A stretch of 64,000 nucleotides of DNA from Dehalococcoidia bacterium (GTDB lineage: Bacteria; Chloroflexota; Dehalococcoidia; Bin125), in the NCBI GenBank assembly GCA_963662615.2, contig CAXXSR010000001.1, positions 544,001 to 608,000 on the forward strand, written 5' to 3'. Every line of letters starts with the position of its first letter. The stretch's first letter is position 1. Positions 28,069 to 58,783 of this stretch are shown in pieces. The translations under genes and the position numbers were made by a program. The notes beneath the pieces are model-generated. The model was not told where the DNA came from, searched no databases, and saw only the letters and a list, made by a program, of their open reading frames with translations.

Positions 28069-28143
28069 TGGAGCGGCGGACGGGATTCGAACCCGTGGCC
28101 CCCTGCTTGGAAGGCAGGAGCTCTACCCCTGAGCTACCGCCGC
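28069..28143 (-). tRNA. tRNA-Gly (anticodon TCC)
   Basis: Reverse complement GCGGCGGTAGCTCAGGGGTAGAGCTCCTGCCTTCCAAGCAGGGGGCCACGGGTTCGAATCCCGTCCGCCGCTCCA: 7-bp acceptor stem, CCTGC/GCAGG anticodon stem, TTCGAAT T-loop, U73 and encoded CCA. Confidence 0.97.
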
Positions 28144-41554: not shown

Positions 41555-42004
41555 CTACGACGCCGGCGACGTCGGCGGCCCCCGCACCTCCGTTGTATCG
41601 ATGATCGTCGGCGGCGTCGACAGTGTCTTGTGCACCGGGCAGCGGGTCGCAATGTAGGCTAGGCGGTCGCGCTGCTCCTCACTCAGGTCGCCTTCCAGCG
41701 CGATGGTGCGCCGAATCACTTCCACACGCCCCTCCTCCTGCTCCACCTCTGCGCAGTCCTGGGCGTAGACGCGGTCGTGCGACAGCTCCACGTGCACGGC
41801 GTCCAGCTTCCAGCCCTTGCGACGCGTGTACATCAGCAGCGTCATCGCCGTGCACGCGCCCAACGACGCCAGCAGCAGCTCGTACGGCGACGGCCCCAAG
41901 TCGTCGCCGGCCGGCGCGGGCTCGTCCGCGGTGAGGCTGTGGCGCTCGCTGCGGATGAGGGTCTCGTAGCGATCACCGACGCTGGTGACGGATACGTGTG
42001 CCAT
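41555..42004 (-). CDS. OsmC-family protein
   Basis: [19 protein letters not shown] and RCPVHKTL motifs. Confidence 0.92.
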
Positions 42005-42260
42005 TGAACGCCCTCCTGTCGGGCTAGCGGGCCGCAGGGACGGCGCCAGCTTCGTCCGCGGGCGCGCGGCAGGTCAATCCCATTGTCCCCATTGGCACTC
42101 CGCGTCGATCCGCACCGCCGCGCTCGTCCGGCCCCAATCCGCTTGGCCCCTCTGCGGCGTAGCCTAGGTGGATATGCAGGCTCCGCGATGAGGCGCCGGG
42201 GGTCGGTGGCGCGGTAAGGGTTTGGTAACAAGTCAGCCCCAGCGCTCTGCTAGCGTACGA

Positions 42261-43619
42261 ATGATGAATCGCAAGATCATCCTTGCCCTTGCCGGGTCGC
42301 TCGTCTTCCTCGTCGCTGCTTGCGGCGACGAGGACGCCGACGGCGCGCCGGCTGTCGCTGCTGCTCCGGAGGTTGTCGAGCCCGCCGCGTCTGCCGAGGC
42401 ACCCGCCTCCGTCCAGGAGGAGCCCGAGCCCGTCGGCGAACCCGCCGAGGCAGCCGAGCCCGCGCCCGTCGTCCAACCCGCTGAGGCAGCCGAGCCGGCG
42501 CCCAGCGTCGACGCCCCGTCAGACGCGGCCACGAATGAGCCGGAGACCGTTGCGGACGAGCCGGAGCCGCCCGCGGGCAGCGAGGCCCTGGAGATCCTCG
42601 ACGTCCCCGCTGCGGAGCTCGCCGGCGTGACGGGCTGGATCAACAGCGAGCCCACCACCATCGCCGAGCTGAACGAGCAGAACCGCGTCGTCCTGATCGA
42701 CTTCTGGACCTACACCTGCGTCAACTGCATCCGCACCATGCCCTTCCTGCGGGAGTGGCACCAGAAATACGGCGAGCGCGGCCTCACCATCTTGGGCGTC
42801 CATGCGCCCGAATTCGAATTCGAAAAGGACCCCAATAACGTGCAGGATGCGGTCCAGCGCTTCGAACTCGCCTACCCCATCGTGCAAGACAACGAAATGA
42901 CGACATGGCGGGCGTTCGCGAATCAATTTTGGCCCGCCAAGTACCTCATCGGCGCCAACGGCAACCTGCGCTACCGGCACTTCGGTGAGGGCGCCTACGT
43001 GGAGACTGAAAAGCATATCCGCGCCGCCTTGGAAGACGCCGGCTGGGACGTCAGCGACATCCCCCTGGGCACCGTCGACGAGCACGCGGTCGACCCCAAC
43101 GCCATCTCCGTCACCCGCGAGCTGTACGGCGGCTACGGACGGAACTACACGCAAAACGGCATCTACGCCCGTCAGCCCGAGTACTACGAGGGCGGCGACC
43201 GCGAGCTCTTCTATGAGGACCCCTCCCCCGTCATCCACGACAACCAGTACTGGTACCTGCAGGGGCTCTGGCGCAATGAGCGTGAGGCCATTGTCCACGC
43301 CCGTGTGACCGAGGACTACGAGGACTACATCGCCCTCCGGTTCATCGCCCGCAGTGTCAACGTGGTGCTCAATCCCCTTCGCGATGAGCCGTTCGACGTC
43401 GTGGTCGAACTCGCCGGCCGCCCGCTCACCACCGCTGAGTTTGGCGCCGACGTTATCTACGACGATCAGGGCCGCAGCATCATCCGCGTCGATGAGCCGC
43501 GCATGTACGCCATCGTCGAGCTGCCGGGCGTTGGCGAACACGAGCTGAAGCTGCGCTCGAATTCGGACAACTTCGCCATGTTCGCCTTCACCTTCGGTAT
43601 CTACACCGAAGGCCCCTAG
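42261..43619 (+). CDS. Lipoprotein thioredoxin/redoxin resembling the DipZ C-terminal region
   Basis: Lipobox VAAC; Pro/Glu linker; DFWTYTCVNC, GVHAPEFEFEK, HFGEG and AFTFG motifs. Confidence 0.88.
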   Translation: MMNRKIILALAGSLVFLVAACGDEDADGAPAVAAAPEVVEPAASAEAPASVQEEPEPVGEPAEAAEPAPVVQPAEAAEPAPSVDAPSDAATNEPETVADEPEPPAGSEALEILDVPAAELAGVTGWINSEPTTIAELNEQNRVVLIDFWTYTCVNCIRTMPFLREWHQKYGERGLTILGVHAPEFEFEKDPNNVQDAVQRFELAYPIVQDNEMTTWRAFANQFWPAKYLIGANGNLRYRHFGEGAYVETEKHIRAALEDAGWDVSDIPLGTVDEHAVDPNAISVTRELYGGYGRNYTQNGIYARQPEYYEGGDRELFYEDPSPVIHDNQYWYLQGLWRNEREAIVHARVTEDYEDYIALRFIARSVNVVLNPLRDEPFDVVVELAGRPLTTAEFGADVIYDDQGRSIIRVDEPRMYAIVELPGVGEHELKLRSNSDNFAMFAFTFGIYTEGP

Positions 43620-44167: not shown

Positions 44168-45529
44168 TCAGTATCCCAGCGCCTTCTGGATCCGCGCCCG
44201 CTCCGCCTCCAGGTCAGCGCTGACGCTCACTGGGTACGTCGCCGCCGCCGGTTCCACCCCCAGAAGCGCCTCCCCCAGAAGTGACGGTGGCAGCTCCGCA
44301 ATCGCCTCTCGCGTTCGCTCTCGGCTCTCCTCCAACGAGGCGCCGCCGGCTGGGAGGCGCCTTCCTTCCCGCATCACCTGCGCCAGCAGCGGCCTCCCTT
44401 GGCGCGCTTCCTCCCGTAGCGCAATGGTGTCGCCCGCGGCGCGCCCGTCCTCGCTCAGTCGGAACAGCTGTTTCTTGCCCGGCAGCGTGGCCTTGTCCGT
44501 AGAGAGCTTGATCCGGCCGCGGCCTCCGTACTCCACGAGCTTGTAGACGGCGTCCAGGCTGGGCGCGTCCTGCGACACCACCACCCGCGTGCCCACGGCG
44601 AACGCGTCGATAGGCGCCCCCTCGTGCAGCAGCCGCGCGATGGCGTATTCGTCCAGGCCGCCCCCCGCCACGATCTGCACATGCCCCAGCCCCGCGGCGT
44701 CCAGCAGCGCTCGAGACTCGCGGGCTAAGCCCCTCAGGTCGCCGGAGTCCAGCCGGATGCCCTGGACGCGAAACGCCCCTCCCAACTCCGCGGCCAGCTG
44801 TATGGCCGCGCGCACACCATCGAGCGTGTCGTACGTGTCGACGAGCAGGATCGTGTCGGGGTGCTCCGCCGCGAAGGCCCGGAACGCCTCCAAATCAGAT
44901 TGATGGACCTCCACGTAGCTGTGCGCCATGGTTCCGGCCATGGGAATCCCCCAGCGCTGCCCCGCCAGCAGGTTCGACGTTGACGCAAACCCCACCAGGT
45001 AGAGCGCCCGCGCCGCCTCCACTCCCGCCTCCAACCCGTGGGCGCGACGCGAGCCGAAATCGATGACCGGCCGTCCGCCCGCCGCCTGCACAACCCGCGC
45101 TCCCTTCGACGCCACCAGCGTGCCGAAGTGGACTTGGTTGAGCACCAGCGTCTCCACCATCTGCGCCTGCGGCAGCGGCGCCACCACCTCCAGGATCGGC
45201 TCGTCCGCGAACACGGGTGTGCCCTCCGCCACGGCGTAGACATCGCCGAGGAAGCGGAACGACGCCAGCGCGTCCAGGAACGTGGGCGAGAACCGGCCCA
45301 GCGAGTCGAGCCAGTCCAGCGCCTCCGCCGAGAAGGAGAAGCGCTCCAGGTGCTCCAGCGCGGCGTCGATCCCGCAGGCGACCAGGAAGTTGCGCTGCGG
45401 CGGTAGCCGCCGCACGCTCAGGTCGAAGACGGCCTCATCTTGCAGGTCGCCGGCCAAGTACGCCTGCGCCATGGTCAGCTCGTACAGGTCCGTGAACATC
45501 GACGGATCGGTGACGCGCCTGTCGGTCAT
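44168..45529 (-). CDS. pncB: Nicotinate phosphoribosyltransferase
   Basis: TDLYELTM, DFGSRRAHG, GTMAHS, LVDTYD, RLDSGD and VYKLVE motifs. Confidence 0.95.
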   Translation of the reverse strand: MTDRRVTDPSMFTDLYELTMAQAYLAGDLQDEAVFDLSVRRLPPQRNFLVACGIDAALEHLERFSFSAEALDWLDSLGRFSPTFLDALASFRFLGDVYAVAEGTPVFADEPILEVVAPLPQAQMVETLVLNQVHFGTLVASKGARVVQAAGGRPVIDFGSRRAHGLEAGVEAARALYLVGFASTSNLLAGQRWGIPMAGTMAHSYVEVHQSDLEAFRAFAAEHPDTILLVDTYDTLDGVRAAIQLAAELGGAFRVQGIRLDSGDLRGLARESRALLDAAGLGHVQIVAGGGLDEYAIARLLHEGAPIDAFAVGTRVVVSQDAPSLDAVYKLVEYGGRGRIKLSTDKATLPGKKQLFRLSEDGRAAGDTIALREEARQGRPLLAQVMREGRRLPAGGASLEESRERTREAIAELPPSLLGEALLGVEPAAATYPVSVSADLEAERARIQKALGY

Positions 45530-45605
45530 GATCCGCTCCCGCGTCCGCGGCGACGTCGGTCCTTCCTGCGGAAGGACCGCGGCCCGCCACGCTCACTCGC
45601 CACGC

Positions 45606-46190
45606 CTACTCGATCGTGACACCGGCGGCCCGCAGCGCCTCCAGGGCGCGCTCGCCGTCGCCGGGCTGCAGGTCCACGGCCCGAACGGCCTGCCCCAGTA
45701 CCACGGCCTCGAAGCCCAGGCGCACCGCGTCCAGGGCGCTCTCCTTGACGCAGTAGTCCGTGGCCAGCCCCACAATGACCAGCCGCCGGACCCCGTGTTC
45801 GTGGAGTAACGCCTCCAGCCGCGTCGACACTCGATCGCCGCTGCGTGGGTCACGAACCGAGAAGCCCGAGTAGCCGTCCTCTCCGCCCGCGCCCTTCTGC
45901 AACGCTTCGCCCTCCACGCGTAGGTCGGGGTGGAAAGCCGCGCCCCAACTGCCCTGCACGCAGTGGACCGGCCAGGGCCCGCCCTCCGTCTCAAAGTGCG
46001 CGGTGCGCTGCGGGTGCCAGTCCTGCGTGTACACGACCGGTGCGCCCGCCGCCCGCGCCGCCGCGATCTCCGCATTGATCGGCTCCACGATCTCGTCTCC
46101 GCCGCCCACCGAGAGGCTCCCTTTCGCATCGGCGAAGTCGTTCTGCACGTCGACGACGAGCAGCGCCGTCCGCGCGTCGTACCGCGTCAT
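45606..46190 (-). CDS. pncA: Nicotinamidase/pyrazinamidase
   Basis: VDVQNDF, TQDWH, WPVHCV, YSGF and GLATDYCV motifs; directly upstream of pncB. Confidence 0.93.
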   Translation of the reverse strand: MTRYDARTALLVVDVQNDFADAKGSLSVGGGDEIVEPINAEIAAARAAGAPVVYTQDWHPQRTAHFETEGGPWPVHCVQGSWGAAFHPDLRVEGEALQKGAGGEDGYSGFSVRDPRSGDRVSTRLEALLHEHGVRRLVIVGLATDYCVKESALDAVRLGFEAVVLGQAVRAVDLQPGDGERALEALRAAGVTIE

Positions 46191-46371: not shown

Positions 46372-46680
46372 CTAGTGCGCTCAAGTGGGGCCGTGGGCGT
46401 GAAGCGGATCCACCGCGACCGCGAACGAGCGCCAGAAGAGGAACCGCTTCGTCTCCAGGTGGACGCTCTTGGCGAAACGCGGCAGCCCGAACGCCACCAG
46501 GATCTCCAGCCCCTGCTGCCGCACGATCTGGTAGCGCGATGTGTTCTTGCCCTTGAGGTAGGTGTCGACCGACACCTCCGCGCGGCCGCCTCAACCGATG
46601 GGCGGAATGTAGTCCAGCGCCATCACGCCGCCGCGCCTGCGGGCCAGGTGGACGGCTTCGTCGCTCAGGGAGATCTTCAT
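46372..46680 (-). CDS. Predicted selenoprotein with two Sec residues (U30, U100), HesB/IscA-like, 102 aa
   Basis: Single frame MKISLSDEAVHLARRRGGVMALDYIPPIG-UGA-GGRAEVSVDTYLKG...HAHGPT-UGA-AH-TAG; both UGAs are followed by G-U-loop hairpins. Confidence 0.75.
46557..46579 (-). promoter_or_regulatory. SECIS-like hairpin for the UGA at 46593-46591
   Basis: mRNA GGAGGUGUC-GGUC-GACACCU(A)CC starts 11 nt after the UGA; perfect 7-bp core stem with a GGUC loop. Confidence 0.75.
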
Positions 46681-46819
46681 GCGGCGTGTCTCAACGTCAC
46701 GTTTACGCTAGCACGCACACCGTCGGATGCACGGCCGTGCGCCGCCACGCCTATACTCCCCTGGCGGCTTGTGGTGGCGACGTTGCAGAGGGCGCGCGAC
46801 CTAGGGAGCGAGGATCGAC

Positions 46820-47215
46820 ATGGCGGCCGTTCGCGGGCTCGTGGAAGTGGTGCTGCTGGTCAACGACATGGAGAGGTCGCTGGCCTTCTACCGCGACGCG
46901 CTGGGCCTTGAGCTCTTCTCTCCGCCCGAGCTGCCGGGCAAGTTCCTCCGCGTCGGCGAGAGGGACGGCGTGCCCGCGCAGATCGTCCTCGTGCCTCGAC
47001 GGGGCGACGACGCCGCTCCCGCCGAGAAGGCGCAGCGCAACCTCCACCACCTCGGCCTGGAGGTGGCGCCGGAAGCGTTCGAGAGCGAGCGCGCCCGCCT
47101 GGCGGCCCTGGGCTACGAACTGCGCCCGGGCACCCACCCGTTCTTGGACGTGGAGGCGTTCTATCTGGACGACCCCGACGGCAACGAGGTCGAGATCGTC
47201 ACCCGCCCGGCCTGA
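46820..47215 (+). CDS. VOC/glyoxalase-family protein
   Basis: L.VNDMERSLAFYRDALGL, HHLGLEV and YLDDPDGNEVEI; TATACT -10-like hexamer near 46752. Confidence 0.92.
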   Translation: MAAVRGLVEVVLLVNDMERSLAFYRDALGLELFSPPELPGKFLRVGERDGVPAQIVLVPRRGDDAAPAEKAQRNLHHLGLEVAPEAFESERARLAALGYELRPGTHPFLDVEAFYLDDPDGNEVEIVTRPA

Positions 47216-47236
47216 GGGCCGGTTTACGCGATCTCG

Positions 47237-47264
47237 TTGACTGTTAACGGCCATCGCCTATCCT
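47237..47264 (+). promoter_or_regulatory. Sigma70-type promoter of CHRD gene 1
   Basis: TTGACT-16nt-TATCCT; conserved in the paralogous copy at 48299-48326. Confidence 0.6.
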
Positions 47265-47301
47265 CCCTTGCAGCATGGCGTCGCGCCAGAACCCTCGATC
47301 T

Positions 47302-47395
47302 CGCTCACCCTGAGCCTGTCGAGGGGTCGTCCTGAGCGTGCCTGCCCTGACCTGTCCTTCCCTCCTGGGAAGGAGCGTGCCGAAGGGGCGAACGG
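47302..47395. repeat. Palindromic element family A, composite copy in the 5' UTR of CHRD gene 1
   Basis: CCCTGAGCCTGTCGAGGG...CCTGA-CCTGTCCTTCCCTCCTGGGAAGGA-GCGTGCCGAAGGGGCGAACGG. Confidence 0.8.
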
Positions 47396-47439
47396 GGGGT
47401 CCGGGCAGGAGCGGCGCCGCCTAGAGGAGGACGAGAACG

Positions 47440-48210
47440 ATGAGCATCAGCAGAAACGGAGCGCTGCCGCTCGGACTTGCGGCAGCCGTCATTGTCGCGG
47501 CCTTGGTCGCCGGGGCGATCCTGCCGGGCCGCGCGACGGCGCAGTCGACGTTCAGCGCCACGCTGAGCGGCGACGCCGAGGTGCCGGCGGTCACCACGGA
47601 CGCCAGCGGCAGCTTCACCGCCACGATCGCGGACGGGGCGCTGGACTTCAGCTTGACCTCGGACGCGACAGGGATCACCGCATCGCACATCCACTTGGGC
47701 GGGCCGGACGAGAACGGCGGCGTTGTGGCCTTCCTCTTCGGCCCAGCCGATCCCGCTGTCGATGGCGTCGAGGCCACCGGCACCATCACCGTCGACGACC
47801 TCCTGGACCCCCTGGCGGGCGATTGGGACGGCTTCGTCGCGGCGCTGAACGACGGGACCGCCTACGTCAATGTCCACACCGAGGCCAACCCGCCCGGTGA
47901 AGTGCGCGGCCAGATCGCGCCGGCGGCGGAGGCCGCGCCGGAGCCCGAGCCGCCCGCGCCCGAACCTGAGGCGCCCGCGCCGGAGCCTGAGCCGGCCGCG
48001 CCTGAACCACCGGCGCCCGCGCCGACGCCCGAACCGGCCCCCGCGCCCGAGGCGCCGGCGGCCGCCCCCGACTCACTGCCCGCGACCGGCAGCGGGGGAC
48101 TGGCGGCAGACGGCGGCGGAGCCTCCGGCTGGATCTTGGCGCTGCTTGCGGCCGGCTTCACGCTCGGTGCCGGCCTGGGCCTCCGCCGGACCCTGCGGCG
48201 GCGCGCCTGA
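47440..48210 (+). CDS. Secreted CHRD-domain protein with Pro-rich stalk and LPXTG sorting signal
   Basis: LSGDAEVPAV, SHIH, YVNVHT..NP.GEVRGQI; C-terminal LPATG plus TM helix plus RRTLRRR. Confidence 0.9.
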   Translation: MSISRNGALPLGLAAAVIVAALVAGAILPGRATAQSTFSATLSGDAEVPAVTTDASGSFTATIADGALDFSLTSDATGITASHIHLGGPDENGGVVAFLFGPADPAVDGVEATGTITVDDLLDPLAGDWDGFVAALNDGTAYVNVHTEANPPGEVRGQIAPAAEAAPEPEPPAPEPEAPAPEPEPAAPEPPAPAPTPEPAPAPEAPAAAPDSLPATGSGGLAADGGGASGWILALLAAGFTLGAGLGLRRTLRRRA

Positions 48211-48235
48211 GCTTCCGGCCCTCGCCTGAGAACGA

Positions 48236-48268
48236 AACGGCCCCGGCGATGTCGCCGGGGCCGTTCTT
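48236..48268 (+). terminator. Intrinsic terminator-like hairpin
   Basis: AACGGCCCCGGCGA/TCGCCGGGGCCGTT followed by CTT, just after CHRD gene 1. Confidence 0.65.
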
Positions 48269-48298
48269 CGTAGCGACGTGCGGTGTCCTCCGTCGTAG

Positions 48299-48326
48299 TT
48301 GACAAATTACGGCCGCCGCCTATCCT
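48299..48326 (+). promoter_or_regulatory. Sigma70-type promoter of CHRD gene 2
   Basis: TTGACA-16nt-TATCCT. Confidence 0.65.
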
Positions 48327-48360
48327 CCCACGCGGCAAGGCGTCGCCAGAGCCCATCACC

Positions 48361-48448
48361 CCGTTCGTCCTGAGCCTGTCGAAGGGGCGAACGGGGGGCT
48401 GGAGGATGAGGTCATCCGCTCACCCTGAGCCTGCCGAAGGGCGAACGG
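48361..48448. repeat. Two minimal family A palindromic units
   Basis: CCGTTCGTCCTGAGCCTGTCGAAGGGGCGAACGG (48361-48394) and a variant at 48416-48448. Confidence 0.85.
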
Positions 48449-48492
48449 GGAGTCCGGGCAGGAGCGGCGCCGCCTGGGGGAGGACGAGAATA

Positions 48493-49905
48493 ATGACCAT
48501 CAGCAGAAACGGAGCGCTGCCGCTCGGACTTGCGGCAGCCGTCATTGTCGCCGCCTTGGTCGCCGGGACGATCATGCCGGGCCGCGCGGCGGCGCAGGCG
48601 ACGTTCACCGCGACGCTCAGCGGCGACGCCGAGGTGCCGGCGGTCATCACGGACGCCACCGGCAGCTTCACCGCCACCATTAGGGACGGGGCGCTGGATT
48701 ACACCCTGACCTCTGACGCGACGGGGATCACCGCAGCGCACATCCACATCGCTACGCCTTTTGAGAACGGGCCGTTCGTGGCGTTCCTCTTCGGGCCGGA
48801 AGACCCGGGGGTGGACGGCGTCGACACCAGCGGCACCATCACCGTCGACGACTTACTGGACGTCGTGGCGGGCGATTGGGACGGCTTCGTCGCGGCGTTT
48901 CACGACGGCACCGCTTACGTCAACGTCCACACTGAGGCCAACGCGGGCGGGGAAGTGCGCGGCCAGATCGTCAATGCGGCGGCGCAGGCCGACCCTGCCG
49001 CGCTCGTGGAGCAGTATCTGGCCGCTATCAGTGCCGGCGACGTCGATGCTGCCGTCGCGCTGTTCACCGACGACGTGGTCTTGGAGGGCGACGTATGCAA
49101 CCTCGATGCCTGCGTCGGCATCGACGCGGCGCGCGCCTCCACCGAGCAGGACGTCGAGGACCAGATCAACCTCACCCTCGCCAGCGCTGAGGTGATCGAC
49201 GGTACCGTGACCGGCACGGTCGAGCTCCGTTCACCCGAGCTTACGCAGTTTGGCATCGAGCGCCTCGTCTTTGCGCTCACGGCGGAGGTCAGGGACGGCA
49301 AGATCGCCCGCATCAACGCCGAACTGGACCTGACGGACTCGGAGACGGCCGAGGTTGCCGCGCTGTTTGAGCGATTCGAGGAGGAAGGGGCTGGAGCGCA
49401 GCCCGCCAGCGCCGTGGAGTTGCTGGGCCTGCTCAGTGCCGCGGGCTTCGACCCGGCGCTCCAGGAGATCGCGACGACGCGGCCCTGGATCCCGGTCTCC
49501 GCTGCCGGGGTGCTCGTCGTGGCGGGCGGCCGGGCCGAGGTCTACGAGCTTGATAGCCCCCAAGCGGTCGGGGCGGCGCTCGACCAGTTCCCCGGCTTGA
49601 CCGCCAACGTGACAATCTGGGGTAGCGGTTCGCTCATCGTGATTCTGCTCGATGCGCCGGACAGCCCGGCGGCCGAGGAGGCGCTGTTCTCGGTGCTCGG
49701 TGGGCCAGCCATCGCGACCATCGCGGGCCTCATCCCGCCCCCCGAGGTACCGGCAGAAGCGCCCGACGCGCTCCCGGACACGGGCAGCGGCGGACTGGCG
49801 GCGGACGGCGGTGGATCCTCCGGCTGGATCTGGGCGCTGCTTGCCGCTGGCCTCACGCTGGGCGCGGGGCTGGCCGTCCGCCGGACCCTGCCGCGGCGCT
49901 CCTAA
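48493..49905 (+). CDS. CHRD plus SnoaL/NTF2-like domain protein with LPXTG sorting signal
   Basis: N-terminal about 160 aa nearly identical to CHRD gene 1; LVEQYLAAISAGDVDAAVALFTDD is an NTF2 start; LPDTG plus TM plus RR tail. Confidence 0.88.
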   Translation: MTISRNGALPLGLAAAVIVAALVAGTIMPGRAAAQATFTATLSGDAEVPAVITDATGSFTATIRDGALDYTLTSDATGITAAHIHIATPFENGPFVAFLFGPEDPGVDGVDTSGTITVDDLLDVVAGDWDGFVAAFHDGTAYVNVHTEANAGGEVRGQIVNAAAQADPAALVEQYLAAISAGDVDAAVALFTDDVVLEGDVCNLDACVGIDAARASTEQDVEDQINLTLASAEVIDGTVTGTVELRSPELTQFGIERLVFALTAEVRDGKIARINAELDLTDSETAEVAALFERFEEEGAGAQPASAVELLGLLSAAGFDPALQEIATTRPWIPVSAAGVLVVAGGRAEVYELDSPQAVGAALDQFPGLTANVTIWGSGSLIVILLDAPDSPAAEEALFSVLGGPAIATIAGLIPPPEVPAEAPDALPDTGSGGLAADGGGSSGWIWALLAAGLTLGAGLAVRRTLPRRS

Positions 49906-49933
49906 CGCTCAAACGGCCGAATCCTCCATCCCT

Positions 49934-50128
49934 CCCTCTCCATCATTCCGCGGAAGGATGGAGAGGGGGCCGGGGGTGAGGTCATCCGCTCACCCTGACC
50001 TGTCCTTCGCGCAGCAGAAGGAGCTTGTCGAAGGGCGAACTGGACAGTCGCCGCCCAGCCGCCGCGCCCCCCATTCGTCCTGACTTGTCCTTGACTCCTG
50101 GGAAGGAGCTTGTCGAAGGGGCGAATGG
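49934..50128. repeat. Cluster of palindromic elements (one family B, two family A)
   Basis: Family B at 49934-49986; family A at 49986-50043 and 50071-50128, the last with covarying ends CCATTCG/CGAATGG. Confidence 0.85.
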
Positions 50129-50247
50129 GGACGGTCACCGCCCGGCCGCCGCGAACCAGCTTGGAAAATCTGCTACGCTGGGGGGGCAGCGCGAAGCGGC
50201 TTGCCCCTTGCGGGCGGCCGCCCGCAGCCGACGAGGAGGAGCGGATC

Positions 50248-50859
50248 ATGAGCAGTGAAGCGACCCCAGGCGACGACCTCCGCATCTCCTTCAGCGACGA
50301 CGCCGTCGCCAAGCTGCATGAAGTGATCGTAGCCTATCCCGAACCGCTGGCGGGGCTGCGGCTAAAGATCCTGGGGCGAAGCGAGGGCGGCTTCGAGCAC
50401 GTCCTCACGCTCGTGGAGGAGGGGACGGAGTCCGACGACGATCCCGTCATCGAGGTCTCCGGCCTGCGCGTCTACGTGGAGGCCGACAATGCCCAGGACC
50501 TCAAGGGCGTCTCCGTCGATTACCGCGACAAGGGTCCCAACGAGAGCGGGCTCGAGTTCAGCAATCCCAACCCGATCTGGCGCGACCCGCTCGCTCTGGA
50601 GATCCAGAACCTCTTCGACGAGTACGTGAACCCGGGCGTCGCCGCCCACGGCGGTCACGTCAGTCTCATCGACGTGCGCGACAACAAGGCCTACATCCAG
50701 CTGGGCGGCGGCTGCCAGGGCTGCGGCATGGCGGACGTCACTCTCAAGCAGGGGATCGAGGTCGCGATCAAGGAGGCGGTGCCCAGCATCGAAGAGGTCG
50801 TCGACGTGACGGACCACGGCGCCGGCGACAACCCCTACTACCAGCCGGCCAAGAAGTAG
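50248..50859 (+). CDS. nfuA: Fe-S biogenesis protein NfuA (degenerate A-type domain plus NifU-C domain)
   Basis: VNPGVAAHGG, LGGGCQGCGMA..TLKQGIE and DVTDH..G.NPYY motifs; GAGGAGGAG RBS. Confidence 0.9.
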   Translation: MSSEATPGDDLRISFSDDAVAKLHEVIVAYPEPLAGLRLKILGRSEGGFEHVLTLVEEGTESDDDPVIEVSGLRVYVEADNAQDLKGVSVDYRDKGPNESGLEFSNPNPIWRDPLALEIQNLFDEYVNPGVAAHGGHVSLIDVRDNKAYIQLGGGCQGCGMADVTLKQGIEVAIKEAVPSIEEVVDVTDHGAGDNPYYQPAKK

Positions 50860-50888
50860 CCGCCGCCGGCCCCAGTGCCGGAACGACC

Positions 50889-52427
50889 GTGACGCGCGTT
50901 CTCCTCATCTCCACCTACGAGGATGGCCACCAGCCCCTCGGGCTGGCCGCTCCCGCGGCCGCCCTTCGCGCCGCCGGCCACGACGTCCGCTGCTTCGACC
51001 TCGCGGTGGAGACGCCGGAAGCCGGCATCTTCACCGACGTGGACCTGATCGGCATCTCCGTCCCCATGCACACCGCCGCCCGCCTCGGCATCGCCCTGGC
51101 CCGGCGGCTGCGCCGCCTCAACCCCACCGCCCACCTGACCTTCTACGGCCTCTACGGCTCGGAGCTGCACGACCACCTCACGCGGGACGGCATCGCCGAC
51201 TCGGTCATCGGCGGCGAGTACGAGCCCGGCCTCCGCGCCCTCGCCGACGACATCGGCGCCGGCCGTTCCGCCGACGCGCTCTCCCGATCCGGCATGGGAG
51301 CGGCGCCGCTCTTTCCCCGCCAGCGCTACCCCGTCCCCGACCGGCGCGACCTGCCCTCGCTGGACCGCTACGCGCATCTGGACACCGGCGACGAGCTGCG
51401 CCTCGCCGGCTACGTGGAGGCCACGCGCGGCTGCGCGCATCGCTGCACCCACTGCCCCCTCACGCCGACCTATGGGGGCCGCCTGCGACTGGTGCAGCCC
51501 GAGACGGTGCTGGCCGACATCGACAGCCTTGTGGCGAGCGGCGCTCGGCACATCACCTTCGGCGACCCCGACTTCCTCAACGCCGTCCCCCATTCGCTCG
51601 CCATCGTCCGGGAGATGCGGCGCCGCCACCCCGACACCACCTTCGACGCCACCATCAAGGTCGAGCACCTGCTGGAGCACGCGAACGCCCTGCCCCACCT
51701 CCACGACCTCGGCTGCCTTTTCATCACCTCCGCCTTCGAATCCGTGGACGACCGGCTGCTCGCCATTCTCGACAAAGGCCACACCCGCGCCGACATGGAG
51801 CGCGCCCTCGCCCTCGCCCAGCGGGCCTTGCTGGTGCTCCGCCCCACCTGGCTCCCGTTCACGCCCTGGACGTCGCTAGGCGATTTCTTCGCCATCCTGG
51901 AGTTCGTCGAGGCGCATGACCTCGTCTATCACGCTCAGCCGGTGCAGTACGCCCTGCGGCTGCTCCTGCCGCCCGGCTCCCCCCTGATCGACGTGATCCG
52001 CGCCGACGGCCTCCTGGACGGCTTCGACCCGGACGGCCTCACCCACCGCTGGCGCAACCCCGACCCCGCGGTTGACACGCTGCAGGCGCGCCTGGCCGGC
52101 GTCGTGGCGGCGGCCGCCACCCCGGATGCCCAGGGCCGCGCGGAGGACGTGGCGCACACGTTCGCGCGCATCAAAGCGGAGGCCGTGGCGGCGCTCCCCG
52201 TTCGTCCTGACCTGTCCTTCCCTCCTGGGAAGGAGCCTGTCGAAGAGCCTGCCCTGAGCTTGCCTGTCCTGATCCTTCCCCGCGGGAAGGACGAAGGGCC
52301 GAAGGGGCGAACGGCACCCGCCCCGAACGGCCACCGCCACGTCCCCGGCCTCACCGAAGCCTGGTTCTGTTGAGCGGAGCCCACCGAGGAGCAGTTGGCT
52401 CCTCTCGATAAGGCCCTGAGCATCTAG
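50889..52427 (+). CDS. B12-binding-like radical SAM selenoprotein with C-U-AEP tail (UGA 52371-52373 read as Sec)
   Basis: CxxxCxxC motif (RGCAHRCTHC); ...GLTEAWFC-TGA-AEPTEEQLAPLDKALSI-TAG; hairpin downstream; matches the CUAEP/CCAEP-tail family (from memory). Confidence 0.88.
52198..52314. repeat. 117-nt family A element inserted in-frame in the radical SAM gene
   Basis: CCGTTCG...CGAACGG termini; length is 39 codons; 116/117 identical to 52499-52615. Confidence 0.9.
52386..52404 (+). promoter_or_regulatory. SECIS-like hairpin of the radical SAM gene
   Basis: GAGGAGC-AGUUG-GCUCCUC, a perfect 7-bp stem starting 12 nt after the UGA. Confidence 0.75.
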
Positions 52428-52498
52428 GGGCGCTCACGCGCTCGCCGCCGTTGAAGTCGGGGAGGCTGGAGCCGGGTCGCCTGCCGCGCCCACGCCCC

Positions 52499-52615
52499 CC
52501 GTTCGTCCTGACCTGTCCTTCCCTCCTGGGAAGGAGCCTGTCGAACAGCCTGCCCTGAGCTTGCCTGTCCTGATCCTTCCCCGCGGGAAGGACGAAGGGC
52601 CGAAGGGGCGAACGG
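52499..52615. repeat. 117-nt family A element, intergenic twin
   Basis: One mismatch to 52198-52314 (GAAGAG vs GAACAG). Confidence 0.9.
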
Positions 52616-52817
52616 CGCCCGCGCCCGCGCCACCCCCGCCCCCGGCCTTGAGCGACACCCAGACGCCTCAGGCGGGCCCTCGGGGAGCGACGGGGCTCTG
52701 AGCAGGCGCGGTTGTCCGCGGCTGCCGTGATTCGTTCCGTCACGGCATCGGCTGTAGCGTAGTGTCGCTGCAACATTCGTTTCGTCCCCTTCAGGGGTGG
52801 TCCGTGTGGAGGCCTGC

Positions 52818-53075
52818 GTGACGCGAGTGGACAAGCTCATAACGAAGCTCCAGCGAAAGCCGGCGGAAGCTGCATTCTCGGACATTGAGAGGCTGCTCAA
52901 CGCGCACGGCTGGGTCGTGGAGCGCTGGAGCGGGAGCAACGCCATATTTGTTCCGGAAGACGATCCAGGGCACGTGGGACTCAGAGTGGTGACTCTGAAA
53001 GGAAGGAAGGTCGCACGAGCCTATATCCAGAGAGTCCTTGAGCACCTGGACCTCGATCAGAAAGGAGGGGGCTAG
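52818..53075 (+). CDS. HicA-like toxin homolog (orphan; GSH changed to GSN)
   Basis: GGAGG then GTG; KLI.KL...P....FSDIERLL...GW.....SGSN..F...KV...YI..VL pattern. Confidence 0.7.
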   Translation: MTRVDKLITKLQRKPAEAAFSDIERLLNAHGWVVERWSGSNAIFVPEDDPGHVGLRVVTLKGRKVARAYIQRVLEHLDLDQKGGG

Positions 53076-53195
53076 CCCTGACTTTGCGCGCCAGGGGCCC
53101 AACTCTCTCTCTCCTCACCACCCCGCCCGCCGCTGCGCCCGCCCCGTCGTCCGCGTCACTCACGACGGCCAGAGGGGCTCGTCGGAGCTCCCTGC

Positions 53196-53411
53196 TCATG
53201 GGTTCAATTGCACGCCGCACACACAAATCCGCTCTGCTCCCCCCAATCCCGTTCGGTCACCATATTTAAAGTTGAGCGGCGCGTGGGAGAGCTTCCGATA
53301 GCACGAATGGCAGTACCGCCTCTTGCATTCTCCGCAGCACTGCCGGTAGAAAATGAAGCGCCAGACCGCCCTCCGTCCATTACCACAGACTGTGCATCTG
53401 ACTTGGACCAT
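53196..53411 (-). CDS. Cys-rich microprotein, putative zinc finger (71 aa)
   Basis: CTVC...CCGEC....CHSC...CVC; no clear RBS; low-GC segment. Confidence 0.45.
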   Translation of the reverse strand: MVQVRCTVCGNGRRAVWRFIFYRQCCGECKRRYCHSCYRKLSHAPLNFKYGDRTGLGGAERICVCGVQLNP

Positions 53412-53510
53412 GCTTGTCGCACCGGCAGCGGCTAAGCGAACTCCGCGAATCCGCCCAGCCTACTCCGCGTGGGAGTCCCCCTCCCGGCCGCGCCCTTCCC
53501 GATCGCTGTT

Positions 53511-53690
53511 CTACGCCAGCCGGGCGATGAGCCCGACGATTAGCGCCCCGACTACCACGATCAGCCACAGAATCAATATCGGCCGAGCGATCCATCGTTC
53601 GAGCGGTTCGAAATCCACTGGGGCCAGGGGATCTCCAGCGCCATTGAAGGAACCGCTTGGGCTGCTGCCATCCCAACGCTCAAGTGCCAT
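53511..53690 (-). CDS. Small single-pass membrane protein (59 aa)
   Basis: AGGAG RBS, ATG at 53690, and a C-terminal hydrophobic helix ILILWLIVVVGALIVGLI. Confidence 0.55.
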   Translation of the reverse strand: MALERWDGSSPSGSFNGAGDPLAPVDFEPLERWIARPILILWLIVVVGALIVGLIARLA

Positions 53691-54018
53691 TGCCACACTC
53701 CTGTCTTCCCCCTCAAGGTGGCACGTCGTCAGTTCCGCGGGCAGGTGCGGGCGTCCCATTCGCCATGGGACGAATGACCCATCCGCGCCGCTAGTCAGGA
53801 CGCGTCCGGCGGGCGAGACGGAATGAGGCTGGACGATAGCAACGAGAATGCCGCCGGGTTGCGGGGCACGCGTCTCCGGCTCGCCGACCTACCGCACGAA
53901 TCCGGGCTCCTCCCCCGAGGCGGTCCATCGTGGCGGCGAAGAGCTGCCACTCCAATTTCCTGCTCCTCGCCGCCTGCGCTCCGGCTCATTCTCGGCGTCG
54001 CTTTGCGGTCGCGATTCG

Positions 54019-55260
54019 TTAAGTGCTCGGCTCGATCTCGATCCGCAGCCGGGAGTGTGCTGCACGCAGCGCCCCCTCCACCTGCGCGGGCGTCTCCGCC
54101 TTGGCGAAGATGAAGCCCAGGTATTCGCCGCCCTCCGGCAGCGGCTCCACGACCTGCCCCACGCGCAGCGTCATCGTCACTTCCTCGATACCGGCAACCG
54201 CTCGCGCCTCGTCCAAGCCCTGCACCGCCGTCAGCCGTCCCTGGGCCGGAATCGGGATCATCATCACCCCCGCCGCCGATGCTTCTCGCTCGAACGAATC
54301 GATCGGCGCACCCGTCGCGTGGCGCAGCACGATCTCCTCCAGCGCCATCCCCGTGCCGAAGCGCAGCGTGCGCGCGCAGAGCCCGCCGATGGTCCGCGCG
54401 GCGATGTCCAGCGGCCAGATTCCCTCCGCGTTGAGGCGCAGCTCCGCGTGTACCGGCCCCTCCACGATGCCCAGCGCCCGCGTCGCTCGCTGCACGCAAT
54501 CGGCGATCGCCCGCTGCTGCTCCGCCGCCAACCGCGACGGCGTCACGTAGATGGTCTCCTCGAAGAACGGTCCCTGCAGCGGGTCGGGCTTGTCGAAGAG
54601 GGCCAGCGGGTGCAGCGTCCCTTCCCGCAGCAGCCCCTCCAGCGACACCTCATCGCCGGGGATGTACCCCTCCACCAAGTACGCGCGTGCCGTCTCGCCG
54701 CACTCCTCCGCCACGTCGGGGCGCTCCAGGATGGCGCTTAGCCGTCGCACCGCCGCCACGAACGACGCCGCATCGTCGGCGCGGATGACGCCGCGGCTCG
54801 CCGCCAGCGACAGCGGCTTCACGACGCAGGGATACGCCACCTCCGCCGCGACCCGCTCCGCATCCTCGTCCAGCGACGAGAGGCGAAACGTCGGTGAGGG
54901 CAGACCCGCGGCGGCGAGGCGCTCGCGCAGCACCGCTTTGTTTCGTGTCGCCTCCGCCGCCTCCACGGCGTTGTGGGACAGCGCCAGCATTTGGGCGGCG
55001 CGCGCCGCCAGCACCGTTCCCGTGTCGTCCACCGCTACGACGGCGTCAAGCGGATAGGCGTCGGCGAACGTCGCGATCGCCCGCGCCCCCTCCTCCGGCC
55101 TCGCGAAGCTCGCCGTCAACGTCCGCCCGGGAAACATCTCCGCGACCGGCTGGCCCCTGTCGGAGCCCACGACGATCTCCAAGCCCAGCTTCGCCGCCGC
55201 CGCCATGAAGTCGGGCGCCCGGTACGACGCCGTGGGAATCAGAAGGAGGACGCGGGTCAT
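54019..55260 (-). CDS. ATP-grasp domain ligase (L-amino acid ligase-like)
   Basis: RNKAVLR, YPCVVKP..LAASRGV, VEGYIPG.EVSLE, HAELR, and DIAARTIGG motifs. Confidence 0.9.
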   Translation of the reverse strand: MTRVLLLIPTASYRAPDFMAAAAKLGLEIVVGSDRGQPVAEMFPGRTLTASFARPEEGARAIATFADAYPLDAVVAVDDTGTVLAARAAQMLALSHNAVEAAEATRNKAVLRERLAAAGLPSPTFRLSSLDEDAERVAAEVAYPCVVKPLSLAASRGVIRADDAASFVAAVRRLSAILERPDVAEECGETARAYLVEGYIPGDEVSLEGLLREGTLHPLALFDKPDPLQGPFFEETIYVTPSRLAAEQQRAIADCVQRATRALGIVEGPVHAELRLNAEGIWPLDIAARTIGGLCARTLRFGTGMALEEIVLRHATGAPIDSFEREASAAGVMMIPIPAQGRLTAVQGLDEARAVAGIEEVTMTLRVGQVVEPLPEGGEYLGFIFAKAETPAQVEGALRAAHSRLRIEIEPST

Positions 55261-55577: not shown

Positions 55578-55612
55578 GATCTCACAAGCCTCTCTGTCAG
55601 AAGGAGATGGTC

Positions 55613-56155
55613 ATGCGCATCGGTGAGCTGGCCCAGTGCACGGGGGTGCCCCCCAAGACGATCCGCTACTACGAGGGCATTGAGCTGTTGCCGTCGCCGC
55701 GACGCCAGCTCTCCGGCTACCGCGCCTACGATGACGAGGACGTCGCTCGGCTCCGCTTCGTCGCCAAAGCGAAGCTGCTGGGGCTGACGTTGGAAGAGGT
55801 CGGCGACATCCTCCGCGCCAGCGATCCCGACAGCGTCAACTGCGATCACGTCCTCTCCCTGCTGGAGGCCAAGCGCGACCGCATGGACGCCTGGATCGAG
55901 GAGGCGCGGACGCTTCGCGACGTCCTGGACCGCACCATCGCCGCCTCTCGCGACCGGCTTCAGACGGAGCGCTCCGGCGCCTACCACTGCCCCGTCATTG
56001 AGCGCGGCCTGCATGAGCGCGCCCTCCACCCCGGCCCCTCACGCCACCACGAGATCGAGGGCGCGGAAGCGGCCGCCGCGTCCGTCGTCGCATCCGCCGT
56101 ACGATCGGGCGGCCCCATCCGCCACGAAGGGAAGCGCAGCGATGCCCCCCACTGA
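55613..56155 (+). CDS. MerR-family heavy-metal-responsive regulator
   Basis: MRIGELA...KTIRYYE.I.LL...R..SGYR.Y; Cys in NCDHV and HCPVI; AAGGAG RBS. Confidence 0.92.
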
Positions 56156-58544
56156 GGACGCCGGCGTGGCGGCGCCCGACGCGCCGCAACGCGAGGTCGT
56201 GCTGCCGGTGCGGGGGATGCACTGCGCCTCATGCGTACTGCGCATCGAGACCGCGCTGGAGGCGGTGCCCGGCGTCGCCGATGCCAGCGTCAACCTCGCC
56301 AGCGAGCGCGCCACCGTGCGCGTCGTGGCGGGCCTCGCCGACGAAGCGCTGGTCGAGGCCGTGGAAGGCGCCGGCTATTCAGTCCGGCAAGCGGCCTCAG
56401 CGGACGCCGTCGACGAGGAGGCGGAGGAGCGCGAGCGCGCCCGCGAGCGGCGCGCCCTCTTGCAAGACGCGGTGCTCGCACTGGCGCTGGGATGGTCCGC
56501 CTTCCTCGCCCTGCAGATCAACCGCTGGGCGGACTTGAACTGGGACAAAGACGCCCTCTTCATCACGCTCTTCGCCGTCGCCACGCCGGCCTTTCTCTTC
56601 ACCGGCCGCCACATCTTCGTCGCCGCCTTCCGCGTCGCGCGACACCGCTCCACCGACATGGACACGCTCATCACCATGGGCGTCTGGGCGGCCTTCGGCT
56701 ACAGCGTCGCCGCCACCTTCGCCCCCGGCCCCTTCGCCGACGCCGGCCTCAGGCGCGAGACGTTCTACGAGACGGCGCTGATCATCGTCGGTTTCGTCTC
56801 CCTGGGCCGCTATCTGGAGGCGCGCGCGAAGGGCCGTACCTCCCGCGCCATCAAGCGGCTGCTCACCCTCCGCCCCCAGACCGCGCACGTCCTCCGCGAC
56901 GGCGAGGAGCGGGAAGTGCCCGTCGACACGCTCGTCGTCGGTGATGAGGTCGTGGTCCGTCCCGGCGAACAGTTCCCTGTCGACGGCGCCGTCCTGGACG
57001 GCCTCAGCAGCGCCGACGAGTCCATGCTCACCGGCGAGAGCATTCCCGTCGACAAGCGGCCGGGCGATCGCGTCTTCGGCGCCACCATCAACGGCACCGG
57101 GCTGATCCGTTTCCGCGCGACTGAAGTCGGCAGCGCCACCGTGCTCGCACGCATCATCGCCCTGGTCCAGGCGGCGCAAGGATCGAAGGCGCCCGTCCAG
57201 CATCTCGCCGACCGTGTGGCCTCCATCTTCGTCCCCGTCGTGATCGCCATTGCGCTCGGCGCCTTCATCCTTTGGCTGCTCGTGGGCCCCGACCCGGAAC
57301 TCACCTTCGCGGTTCTCAACGGCGTCGCGGTGCTGATCGTGGCCTGCCCCTGCGCCCTGGGGCTGGCCACGCCCACGGCGATCATGGCGGGCACGGGAAA
57401 GGCGGCGGAGCACGGCATCCTCTTCCGCAACGCCGAATCATTGGAGCGCGCGCACAACGTCGACACGGTGATCCTGGACAAGACCGGCACCATGACCGTG
57501 GGCCGCCCCACCGCCACTGATGTGGTCGGCCTGAACGGTCACTCGCGCGACCAGCTCCTCCGCCTCGCCGCCGCCGTGGAACGCGGCTCCGAGCACGCGC
57601 TCGCCCAGGCAATCGTTGAGGCAGCGCAAGCGGCGGGCCTGACCACGACTGCGGCCACCGACTTCAACGCCCTCCCCGGCCGTGGCGCCCGCGCCCGGGT
57701 CGATGGCCGCACCGTCGAGGTCGGCAACGCGCGTTTCATGGCCGAGCAGGGCTACCCGCTCGGCGACGCCGAGCAGCAGGGCGCGGCCTTCGCCGCGGCG
57801 GGGAAGACGCCGGTGTTCGTCGCCGTCGGCGGCGGGCTGGCCGGCATTATCGCCATCGCCGACACGGTCAAGCCGACTTCCCGGCGCGCCGTCGCCGATC
57901 TTCGCGCTCTGGGCCTGCGCACGCTGCTGCTCACCGGCGACAACCGCGCGACGGCCCAGGCCGTCGCCGACGACATCGGCGTGGATGAGGTCATCGCCGA
58001 CGTGCTCCCGGGGGACAAGGCTGCCGCCGTCGCCCAACTGCAAGCAGAGGGCCACACGGTGGCGATGGTCGGCGACGGCATCAACGACGCTCCCGCCCTG
58101 GCGCAGGCCGACGTGGGCATCGCCATGGGCGGCGGCGCCGACGTCGCCATCGAGGCGGCCGGCGTCACCCTCATGCGCGACGACCCTCGCGGCGTCGTCC
58201 AGGCCCTGGCGGTCAGCCGCGTCACGATGCGCACCATCCGCCAAAATCTGGCTTGGGCCTTCGGCTACAACATCCTGCTCATCCCCATCGCCGCCGGTCT
58301 CTTCTACCCCGTCTTCCAAGCCGCCGGCCCTGTGCCCGGCGGGCTCGAATGGCTCTTCGGCGAGCGCGGCTTCTTCGAGCCCATCGTGGCCGGCTTCGCC
58401 ATGATGCTCTCCAGCCTCAGCGTGATGGCGAACTCTCTCCGCCTGCAACGGCTCCGCCTGCGCAGCGACGACGGCGCTCCACCGGCCTCGCACCGCCACG
58501 CCGGGCCGCGCCCCGGCGTCGCGCCCGCCCGCTCCAGCGGCTAA
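56142..58544 (+). CDS. copA: Cu(I)-translocating P1B-type ATPase
   Basis: HMA motif GMHCASC, TGES, CPC, DKTGT, GDGIND, YN in TM7 and MMLSS in TM8. Confidence 0.95.
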
Positions 58545-58564
58545 CGACGAACGGAAGCACAACG

Positions 58565-58783
58565 ATGACCACCAAGACGGTGACACTCCACCTTCCCGCC
58601 ATTCACTGCGACGGTTGCCTGGGCGCGGTCCGCCGGACGCTGGAAGGCGCCGGCGCGGCGTTCGAGTCGGGCGACGTCCAATCCAAGCGGGTGACGGTGC
58701 GTTTCGACCCCGACCGCCTCAGCCGCGAGGACGTCGTTGGCGCGCTCGAGCGCAGTGGCTTCCCTCCCGAAGCTGAGGAATGA
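58565..58783 (+). CDS. copZ: Heavy-metal-associated (CopZ-like) chaperone
   Basis: 72 aa with IHCDGC and a C-terminal GF. Confidence 0.85.
   Translation: MTTKTVTLHLPAIHCDGCLGAVRRTLEGAGAAFESGDVQSKRVTVRFDPDRLSREDVVGALERSGFPPEAEE

Follow-up and report, generated by a model that had tools for sequence, protein, structure and literature searches.

The locus described here raises the question of which of its closely packed genes belong together. It lies in a stretch of 64,000 nucleotides from a Dehalococcoidia bacterium (genome G000, contig C1, positions 544001-608000), which was analysed as a whole and is called the window below; the host genome is 2.66 Mb in size and about 70% GC. The gene order at the locus is a small minus-strand gene with two UGA codons, a VOC gene, two CHRD genes, nfuA, a radical S-adenosylmethionine (SAM) gene, a low-GC islet, an ATP-grasp gene on the minus strand, and genes for a MerR-family regulator, CopA and a CopZ-like protein. 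A preliminary description of this DNA had read the small two-UGA gene, the VOC gene, nfuA, the radical SAM gene and the ATP-grasp gene as possibly one selenium- and Fe-S-dependent pathway beside a copper operon, with the conjectural roles of a soft metal(loid) or auxiliary cluster bound to the radical SAM tail, a product ligated by the ATP-grasp enzyme, and clusters provided by NfuA and the di-Sec protein. The answer reached here is narrower. The nfuA gene, the radical SAM gene, which belongs to family NF040546, and the ATP-grasp gene, whose product is of the L-amino acid ligase type, very probably form a genuine module, whereas the copper operon, the VOC and CHRD genes and the small two-UGA protein likely lie outside it. 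The landmarks on which the earlier reading was built are all present: three UGA codons with hairpins (one in the radical SAM gene and two in the small minus-strand open reading frame (ORF)); a gap of 29 nt between nfuA, with its stop at 50859, and the GTG start of the radical SAM gene at 50889; an ATP-grasp gene converging on these two across an islet (GC 0.61-0.65 at 52.8-53.8 kb vs. about 0.70 around it); and a MerR/CopA operon next to it, with MerR at 55607-56155, CopA extending to 58544 and a CopZ-like heavy-metal-associated (HMA) protein at 58565-58783.

Gene linkage was examined in 20 loci, of about 20 kb each, from genomes of the same family as the host. In all 20, nfuA precedes the radical SAM gene on the same strand, at distances ranging from directly adjacent to about 2.9 kb, and the ATP-grasp gene is downstream and convergent in 17, with one more cut at the edge of its locus. 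Since genomes of one family are kin, a wide set from outside the family was examined as well, consisting of 80 loci kept from 583 relatives, the record titles of which name many phyla. These were searched by tblastn with the window proteins and by unbiased clustering of ORFs of at least 70 amino acids within 6 kb; genes were tallied up to 5 kb away from the radical SAM gene, and the family screen covered families found in at least five loci. The ATP-grasp gene is present in 40 of the 80 loci, NfuA or Nfu in 39, YggX in 16 and DUF169 (PF02596) in 14, so that an Fe-S helper (NfuA or YggX) occurs in 55, any partner in 65, and ligase and helper together in 37. Where at least 3 kb of upstream and 3.5 kb of downstream flank were available (46 loci), a ligase was found in 25, a helper in 33 and any partner in 38.

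The arrangement of the partners differs between lineages. The order is ligase, radical SAM, Nfu in Blastocatellia, and radical SAM, Nfu, ligase in Rokubacteria/Methylomirabilota; in Actinomycetota, Nfu is divergent from a ligase-radical SAM pair, and in Ktedonobacteria YggX precedes the radical SAM gene. Some Chloroflexota have DUF169, radical SAM and ligase in this order with the genes overlapping, and in all, 14 of the 80 loci have DUF169 within the module operon (e.g., L085, L088, L100, L118, L146 and L183). Judging from these neighborhoods, YggX stands in for NfuA in other lineages, and DUF169 joins now and then as a fourth member. Among the clustered ORFs of at least 70 amino acids no further family reached eight wide loci. 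Smaller groups of six loci each are formed by an Atg22-like major facilitator superfamily transporter (Blastocatellia-titled records and one Clostridia-titled record with identical order), a deacetylase-like protein and a formyltransferase-like protein. A neighborhood and phylogenetic-profile analysis of the CUAEP/CCAEP homologs had been suggested in the preliminary description, and its outcome upholds the core of radical SAM, ATP-grasp and NfuA genes while leaving out the VOC and small selenocysteine (Sec) proteins. The idea of one module survives for the trio, which is adjacent in many phyla in various orders and also co-occurs; it fails for the VOC gene, the small Sec protein and the copper operon.

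Co-occurrence was scored in Chloroflexota genomes at least 85% complete, with cut-offs of E <= 1e-60 for the radical SAM protein and E <= 1e-50 for the ligase. Among 301 genomes the radical SAM gene is present in 80 and the ligase gene in 97, with both in 77, radical SAM only in 3, ligase only in 20 and neither in 201. The corresponding figures for 151 genomes of Acidobacteriota are 23 with both, 1 with radical SAM only, 6 with ligase only and 121 with neither. Three unpublished genomes are included in these counts, G077 (both) and G199 and G380 (ligase only), and the picture is unchanged without them. A relaxed search of five ligase-only genomes found no NF040546 gene, the best match being 52.7 bits. 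The radical SAM gene is thus almost never found without the ligase while the ligase can occur alone, and an Fe or Fe-S helper goes along with either gene. Of five cases with unlinked ligase and radical SAM genes, two have NfuA or YggX beside the ligase. The most ancient part of the module may be the pair of ligase and NfuA/YggX and not the radical SAM gene.

The radical SAM protein of the window is an ordinary member of the named family NF040546 (Table 1); in the genome search its body scored 533.2 bits, and 554.8 bits with the tail. Both the radical SAM domain (PF04055) and a B12-binding-like N-terminal domain (PF02310) are matched. The three cysteines of the cluster motif, C182xxxC186xxC189, are invariant in the aligned homologs, as is C494, and C276 is present in at least 90% of them; the tail motif WFC-U-AEPT occupies residues 492-499. 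The model for ArsL (NF040542) gives 280.8 bits over positions 1-404 of 423, below its cut-off of 450, which places the protein outside that family. Its structure as predicted by AlphaFold2 has a mean predicted local distance difference test (pLDDT) score of 87 and a predicted template modelling (pTM) score of 0.87, with an inserted segment (residues 442-474) as the exception, and combines a Rossmann-like N-terminal domain with a radical SAM barrel behind it. The solved folds closest to the model are AprD4, TsrM, OxsB, CysS, MgmA and TokK, then MiaB/RimO, and a sequence search of the PDB returned TsrM as the only match.

The UGA near the end of this gene is predicted to encode Sec. The ORF ends in ...EAWFC, the UGA at 52371-52373, AEPTEEQLAPLDKALSI and a TAG stop codon, and where the window has WFC-U-AEPTEEQLAP the Cys-form homologs have WFCCAEPT..QLAP. 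A census of 100 related loci found the tail motif in 98, two being cut off, with a Sec tail in 78 (20/20 in the same family and 58/80 in the wide set) and a Cys tail in 20, all of them wide loci. The genome carries a tRNA-Sec (74.5 bits, contig 2) together with SelA, SelB and SelD, and the SelD gene has a TGA of its own. A second copy of the tail was seen in a same-family genome, G009, where a segment with UGA (…EAWFCUAEPTEEQLAPLEKALTV) lies about 2.8 kb from the real one and near the 3' end of the ligase gene; the two copies are at 6680-6736 and 9509-9565 of locus L068, both on the minus strand, and the extra one may be a duplicated gene end.

As single sequences, the hairpins that follow the three UGA codons of the window do not exceed shuffles (z -0.3 to -1.1). 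Since single hairpin energies in this 70% GC DNA are within the range of shuffles, the case for a Sec insertion sequence (SECIS) rests on covariation. RNAalifold applied to 47 Sec-type tails gave a 6-bp stem 16 nt past the UGA, with a loop consensus of CAGUU(G) and compensatory changes in five of the six pairs. In this stem 89.4% of cells are paired and covariation is 0.521, a value reached by none of 500 shuffles, and slid controls were all far lower. The equivalent columns of 20 Cys-type tails have 51.7% of cells paired and a covariation of 0.244. Covariation of the stem-loop is restricted to the Sec forms, as expected for a SECIS element. A UGA aligned with Cys, a SECIS-like stem-loop and the Sec machinery are together what would be expected of a bacterial selenoprotein at the sequence level, and the radical SAM enzyme is a predicted selenoprotein in most lineages.

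In the ATP-grasp protein the domains ATP-grasp_4 (107.9 bits), LAL_C2 (71.4 bits) and ATPgrasp_N (39.1 bits) all score above their Pfam cut-offs. Residues 18-405 match the L-amino acid ligase BL00235 (3vot) at E 7e-41, and the protein aligns along its full length both with this enzyme and with BacD (1e-19). The same architecture is found in the L-amino acid ligases BL00235, BacD, DdaF and LdmS; ATP-dependent formation of dipeptides from free L-amino acids would be the activity expected of this class. Whereas the known ligases of this type sit in antibiotic or amino-acid pathways, that of the module, with an identity of about 45-60% from phylum to phylum, is found beside Fe-S helpers. No NCBIfam model reaches its cut-off on this protein. 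Its public names are "ATP-grasp domain-containing protein" or "biotin carboxylase", and the ESM Atlas gives generic ATP-grasp/LAL names only. Long open frames around ligase genes elsewhere were considered as possible fusions and rejected as high-GC read-through without extra matches.

The third protein has a weak A-type N-terminal domain and a NifU domain. It scores 102.1 bits with TIGR03341, the NfuA equivalog model, below the cut-off of 269; since the NifU CxxC and a weak Fe-S_biosyn N-terminal domain are nevertheless present, it is named NfuA-like. A single PF01106 match was found in the host genome, making the module gene the only NifU-domain gene found there. The module Nfu proteins of different loci have in common only the Nfu domain and a C-terminal TDHxxGxNPYYxPxK(K), and their N-terminal domains vary by phylum or are missing. 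In E. coli, NfuA services the radical SAM enzymes LipA and MiaB. The window protein resembles it as a NifU-domain carrier with a degenerate A-type N-terminal domain, encoded directly upstream of a radical SAM gene, but differs in its lower score (102 vs. 269 bits) and in pairing with the ligase also where no radical SAM gene was found. A predicted complex of the ATP-grasp protein with NfuA scored 0.11 (mark 0.32), which counts neither for nor against contact. In the host genome no YggX was found, and two DUF169 genes are located elsewhere. YggX (PF04362) matches the NCBIfam model 'oxidative damage protection protein'. For a DUF169 representative no solved relative was found by sequence. In a preprint on ocean hgcA genes (10.1101/648329), a figure legend gives a DUF169 gene adjoining an hgcA-like gene of Nitrospina, together with MerR, UbiE and YHS genes.

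Table 1. Features of the locus and their positions in the window
Feature	Position	Strand	Matches and remarks
Small protein, two in-frame UGAs (46591-46593, 46381-46383)	46372..46680	-	NF041239 20.7 bits, below cut-off 40
VOC/glyoxalase-fold protein	46820..47215	+	PF00903 50.7 bits
Two paralogous secreted CHRD-domain proteins	47440-48210 and 48493-49905	+	PF07452
nfuA-like Fe-S carrier: weak A-type N-domain and NifU domain with GGGCQGCG	50248..50859	+	PF01106 77.8 bits, PF01521 28.8 bits
CUAEP-tail radical SAM protein, predicted selenoprotein	50889..52427	+	NF040546 560.9 bits (read-through protein), cut-off 500
Two-unit repetitive extragenic palindromic (REP)-like repeat, in frame in variable linker of radical SAM gene	52193..52340	.	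Insertion vs. 13 homologs
UGA, predicted to be read as Sec, residue 495	52371..52373	+	Aligned with Cys of CCAEP forms
SECIS-like stem-loop	52387..52403	+	AGGAGC / loop AGUUG / GCUCCU
Second copy of REP-like repeat, 3' of radical SAM stop	52493..52640	.	blastn 93.9% identity over 148 nt
Lower-GC islet between radical SAM and ATP-grasp genes	52650..54018	.	GC 0.61-0.65
HicA-like ORF in islet	52797-53075	+	PF07927 25.2 bits, just below cut-off 27
Cys-rich ORF in islet, 71 amino acids	53199-53411	-	Without family match
ORF in islet, 82 amino acids	53514-53759	-	Without family match
L-amino-acid-ligase-type ATP-grasp enzyme	54019..55260	-	PF13535, PF18603 (LAL_C2), PF18130
MerR-family regulator, CopA P1B-ATPase, CopZ-like HMA	55607..58783	+	TIGR01511 570.5 bits, cut-off 397

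In the host genome the module is loosened by a REP-like repeat in the linker of the radical SAM gene and by the HicA-like islet. The in-gene repeat, about 148 nt long, adds some 32 residues ahead of the tail, which are disordered in the model (pLDDT below 50 at residues 442-474), and leaves the reading frame, tail and SECIS-like element unbroken. Both of its junctions are bridged by contigs from public runs of two studies. Searching the genome by blastn gives 57 hits to the repeat; additional fragments of it lie in the window at 50061-50118, 47312-47395 and 16143-16181. The islet looks inserted and outside the module, and HicA was found in none of the 20 same-family loci. In relatives the gap between the radical SAM and ligase genes measures 65 nt to several kb, and the unrelated ORFs in it vary by genome, some of them resembling DNA methylases by eye; since the module gaps hold ORFs differing between genomes, this stretch appears to take up insertions. 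With Rfam, one tRNA and no riboswitch were detected in the window together with four module loci. The tRNA gene, at 28072-28143 on the minus strand, is an ordinary one (72.8 bits), and a weak, sub-threshold tRNA-Sec match (37.5 bits) falls on the same spot.

The small minus-strand gene had been counted as a member of the pathway, and its distribution speaks against this. It matches in five of 41 same-family genomes including the host, and of the four others, that in G001 is weak (33% identity, with three in-frame TAG stops). It is found in one of the 20 same-family loci (G004, where it is divergent from nfuA) and in none of the 80 wide loci. Among the three clear copies in other genomes it adjoins nfuA in one and is away from it in two, and in G009 it is on a different contig from the radical SAM gene. 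Its UGAs stand in ...DYIPPIG-U(46593-46591)-GG... and ...HGPT-U(46383-46381)-AH-TAG. The score with NF041239, a CC/Se motif family, covers positions 1-88 of 91 and leaves the protein outside it. The four clear copies are 61-68% identical and keep both TGAs, and the Ala and His codons after the second TGA are kept in all four, with a synonymous His change (CAC/CAT), then a stop. Four genomes share a 100% identical hairpin after the first UGA; those after the second are strong and in the same place, with different sequences. All 24 database relatives are 62-69 amino acids long, indicating that they were called between the two UGAs. Pfam gave no match for the small protein or for two database relatives with a precomputed PF28096 label. 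A reading with two Sec residues is plausible from these patterns, the second site having about two chances in three.

The VOC gene lacks a UGA feature, and the proposal that its product takes part in the pathway is not borne out, as it is absent from all 20 same-family and all 80 wide loci. The CHRD genes likewise have no match in either set. The two CHRD paralogs have near-identical N-terminal hydrophobic leaders, the second also has a SnoaL-like domain, and by eye their C-termini are reminiscent of LPXTG-type sorting signals, with LPATGSGG or LPDTGSGG preceding a hydrophobic segment and a basic end. The copper genes have what is expected of a copper-exporting P1B ATPase operon (TIGR01511, HMA and MerR domains); the ZntR, MerR, CadR and CueR models are all below their cut-offs on the regulator. 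The suggested tie of this operon to the pathway is confined to the host family, where CopA is beside the ligase in 17 of 20 loci; in the wide set CopA is within 5 kb in 4 of 80 loci and MerR in 1 of 80. The five wide loci with a strong CopA match share the arrangement of the host family, two of them being the same contigs as same-family genomes. Farther upstream are genes for an OsmC-like peroxiredoxin and a secreted redoxin/thioredoxin-like protein (41558-43616); the redoxin gene (42222-43616) was checked for a CU motif and has a plain CxxC, in a domain without an in-frame UGA. A nicotinamidase-like/NAPRT pair at 44171-46190 likewise flanks the small Sec protein in G004.

The window protein shares with NF040546 a score above the cut-off, the CxxxCxxC motif, a B12-binding-like N-terminal domain and the WFC-U-AEPT tail with its SECIS-like element; it differs in the in-frame REP-like insertion. 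The preprint by Haft (2022; 10.1101/2022.07.06.499078) places NF040546 among a few CU-motif selenoproteins and describes the family as poorly known in structure and function; neither ATP-grasp nor NifU is mentioned in the preprint text. No paper on the module turned up in searches of open-access PMC papers and bioRxiv, and the module appears to be undescribed around a named family. The sister and closest characterized family is ArsL (NF040542), which has the same domain layout and a vicinal Cys-Cys pair in the C-terminal tail where NF040546 has Cys-Sec. According to two reports (10.1101/2024.02.01.577332; 10.64898/2026.04.29.721666), ArsL converts SAM to a 3-amino-3-carboxypropyl (ACP) radical, and its Cys-rich C-terminal tail holds arsenite for formation of a C-As bond; ArsM and ArsQ are named as its partners in PMC8552651. 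The ArsL tail, RCCLKC, has three cysteines, whereas the CUAEP tail of NF040546 has no third Cys in the family motif, and NF040546 differs further in being mostly a selenoprotein and in being partnered with a ligase and NfuA/YggX. The CU motifs of HgcA and the SAO locus are also vicinal Cys-Sec pairs on a flexible C-terminal segment, a likeness of motif only. The GCUG tail of thioredoxin reductase is another vicinal Cys-Sec pair and serves as an analogy only.

The explanation favored here, a three-gene module with the remaining genes as bystanders, is given a probability of about 0.55 as a whole, and its mode of action is pictured by analogy with ArsL. The radical SAM enzyme, with SAM at its [4Fe-4S] site, would generate a carbon radical, either ACP as in ArsL or 5'-deoxyadenosyl. 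The flexible Cys-Sec pair at the C-terminus would offer a soft atom or a substrate for bond formation with this radical, and Cys276 may add a third ligand. An oxygen-labile or sacrificial cluster of the enzyme would be loaded or repaired by NfuA or YggX in lineages that we take to be mostly aerobic, and amide-bond formation by the ligase would belong to the same pathway to an amino-acid-derived metabolite. The chemistry given for the radical SAM enzyme is drawn by analogy and is tentative, being doubtful when taken alone. A more specific version, rather improbable at present, is that the ACP group of SAM is moved onto a soft atom (S, Se or a metalloid) at the Cys-Sec tail to give a non-proteinogenic, methionine-like amino acid, and that the ligase couples this to a dipeptide or builds it onto one; at least seven phyla would then make a novel organo-chalcogen or -metalloid metabolite or cofactor, NfuA/YggX and DUF169 serving in its maturation. 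Several observations weigh against the favored explanation. The tail offers two chalcogen ligands vs. three in ArsL, the ArsL model is not reached, and the module was not seen in arsenic operons. The genomes compared are related and not independent, so that counts of loci and genomes overstate the statistical support. Ligase and radical SAM genes are widely separated in some genomes, e.g., by about 6 Mb in G355 (4.3 and 10.4 Mb). Among 14 ligase-only loci (L152-L165), NfuA is beside the ligase in 12, YggX in one and neither in one, so that the Fe-S helper is not merely the servant of the radical SAM enzyme and the ligase can be independent of its product; and as the only NifU-domain gene of the genome, the module nfuA would encode a general carrier, not a dedicated one. 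The persistence of the ligase without the radical SAM gene argues against a simple order in which the ligase acts on the radical SAM product. Since the reverse situation almost never occurs, an earlier step than that of the radical SAM enzyme, or an independent one, is more probable for the ligase.

These observations lead to the main rival, Fe-S or thiol homeostasis, in which the ligase would make a small dipeptide (for example a low-molecular-weight thiol or metal buffer) that helps NfuA/YggX to protect or deliver Fe-S clusters when oxygen or copper is a stress; the radical SAM selenoprotein would be an optional client with a high demand for clusters, or a tailoring enzyme. It is judged unlikely, and the sequence data do not separate it from the favored explanation. 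Ligase and NfuA/YggX are the tightest pair, kept in 13 of the 14 ligase-only loci, and there are 20 + 6 ligase-only genomes; NfuA is the sole NifU-domain protein of the genome, the name of the YggX model points to oxidative damage, and in 17 of the 20 same-family loci a copper exporter stands back to back with the ligase. L-amino acid ligases can also serve sulfur amino acid metabolism, as reported for LdmS in PMC9486568. However, three of the five genomes with an unlinked ligase have no NfuA or YggX beside it, and the copper link is absent outside the host family. That link is also part of the original proposal of one 9-kb selenium/Fe-S pathway, all genes acting together and tied to the copper operon. 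In the window these genes do all stand side by side, in G004, the closest relative having it, the small Sec protein is divergent from nfuA, and CopA adjoins the ligase within the family; but the VOC and CHRD genes are missing from both sets of loci, and the small Sec protein (1/20 and 0/80) and CopA (4/80) are rare, so that this version is very improbable.

A protein-directed role, with the ATP-grasp and/or radical SAM enzyme modifying a protein (NfuA, the radical SAM tail or another) instead of a small molecule, would fit the common arrangement of an enzyme gene beside that of its protein substrate, the conservation of the Nfu C-terminus and of AEPT..Q in the tail, Cys forms included, and the presence of MiaB and RimO among the fold neighbors. 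It is nonetheless highly unlikely, given that the ligase is of the L-amino-acid-ligase type with LAL_C2, that NfuA and YggX are unrelated yet interchangeable as neighbors, that the radical SAM tail varies at its very end, and that the gaps are too short for a conserved precursor peptide, with no extra conserved ORF among those of at least 70 amino acids. Least probable of all is that the genes have no functional link and are adjacent by inherited synteny or chance. The order nfuA, radical SAM, ligase, copA within the family could be inherited, and unrelated ORFs stand between module genes in several relatives, but at least four orders or orientations are found across Chloroflexota, Acidobacteriota, Actinomycetota, Planctomycetota, Methylomirabilota/Rokubacteria, Nitrospirota and KSB1, and the radical SAM and ligase genes co-occur even in genomes where they are unlinked.

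NF040546 is one of few selenoprotein radical SAM families, and its nearest characterized relative, ArsL, carries out very unusual chemistry, in which an ACP radical arising at a canonical radical SAM site forms a C-As bond. The genuine partners are now set apart from the copper operon and other neighbors that could mislead experiments. The natural Cys-form enzymes sidestep the problem of selenoprotein expression, and the partnership with a ligase and an Fe-S helper gives a defined set of three or four genes for co-expression, as well as substrate candidates.

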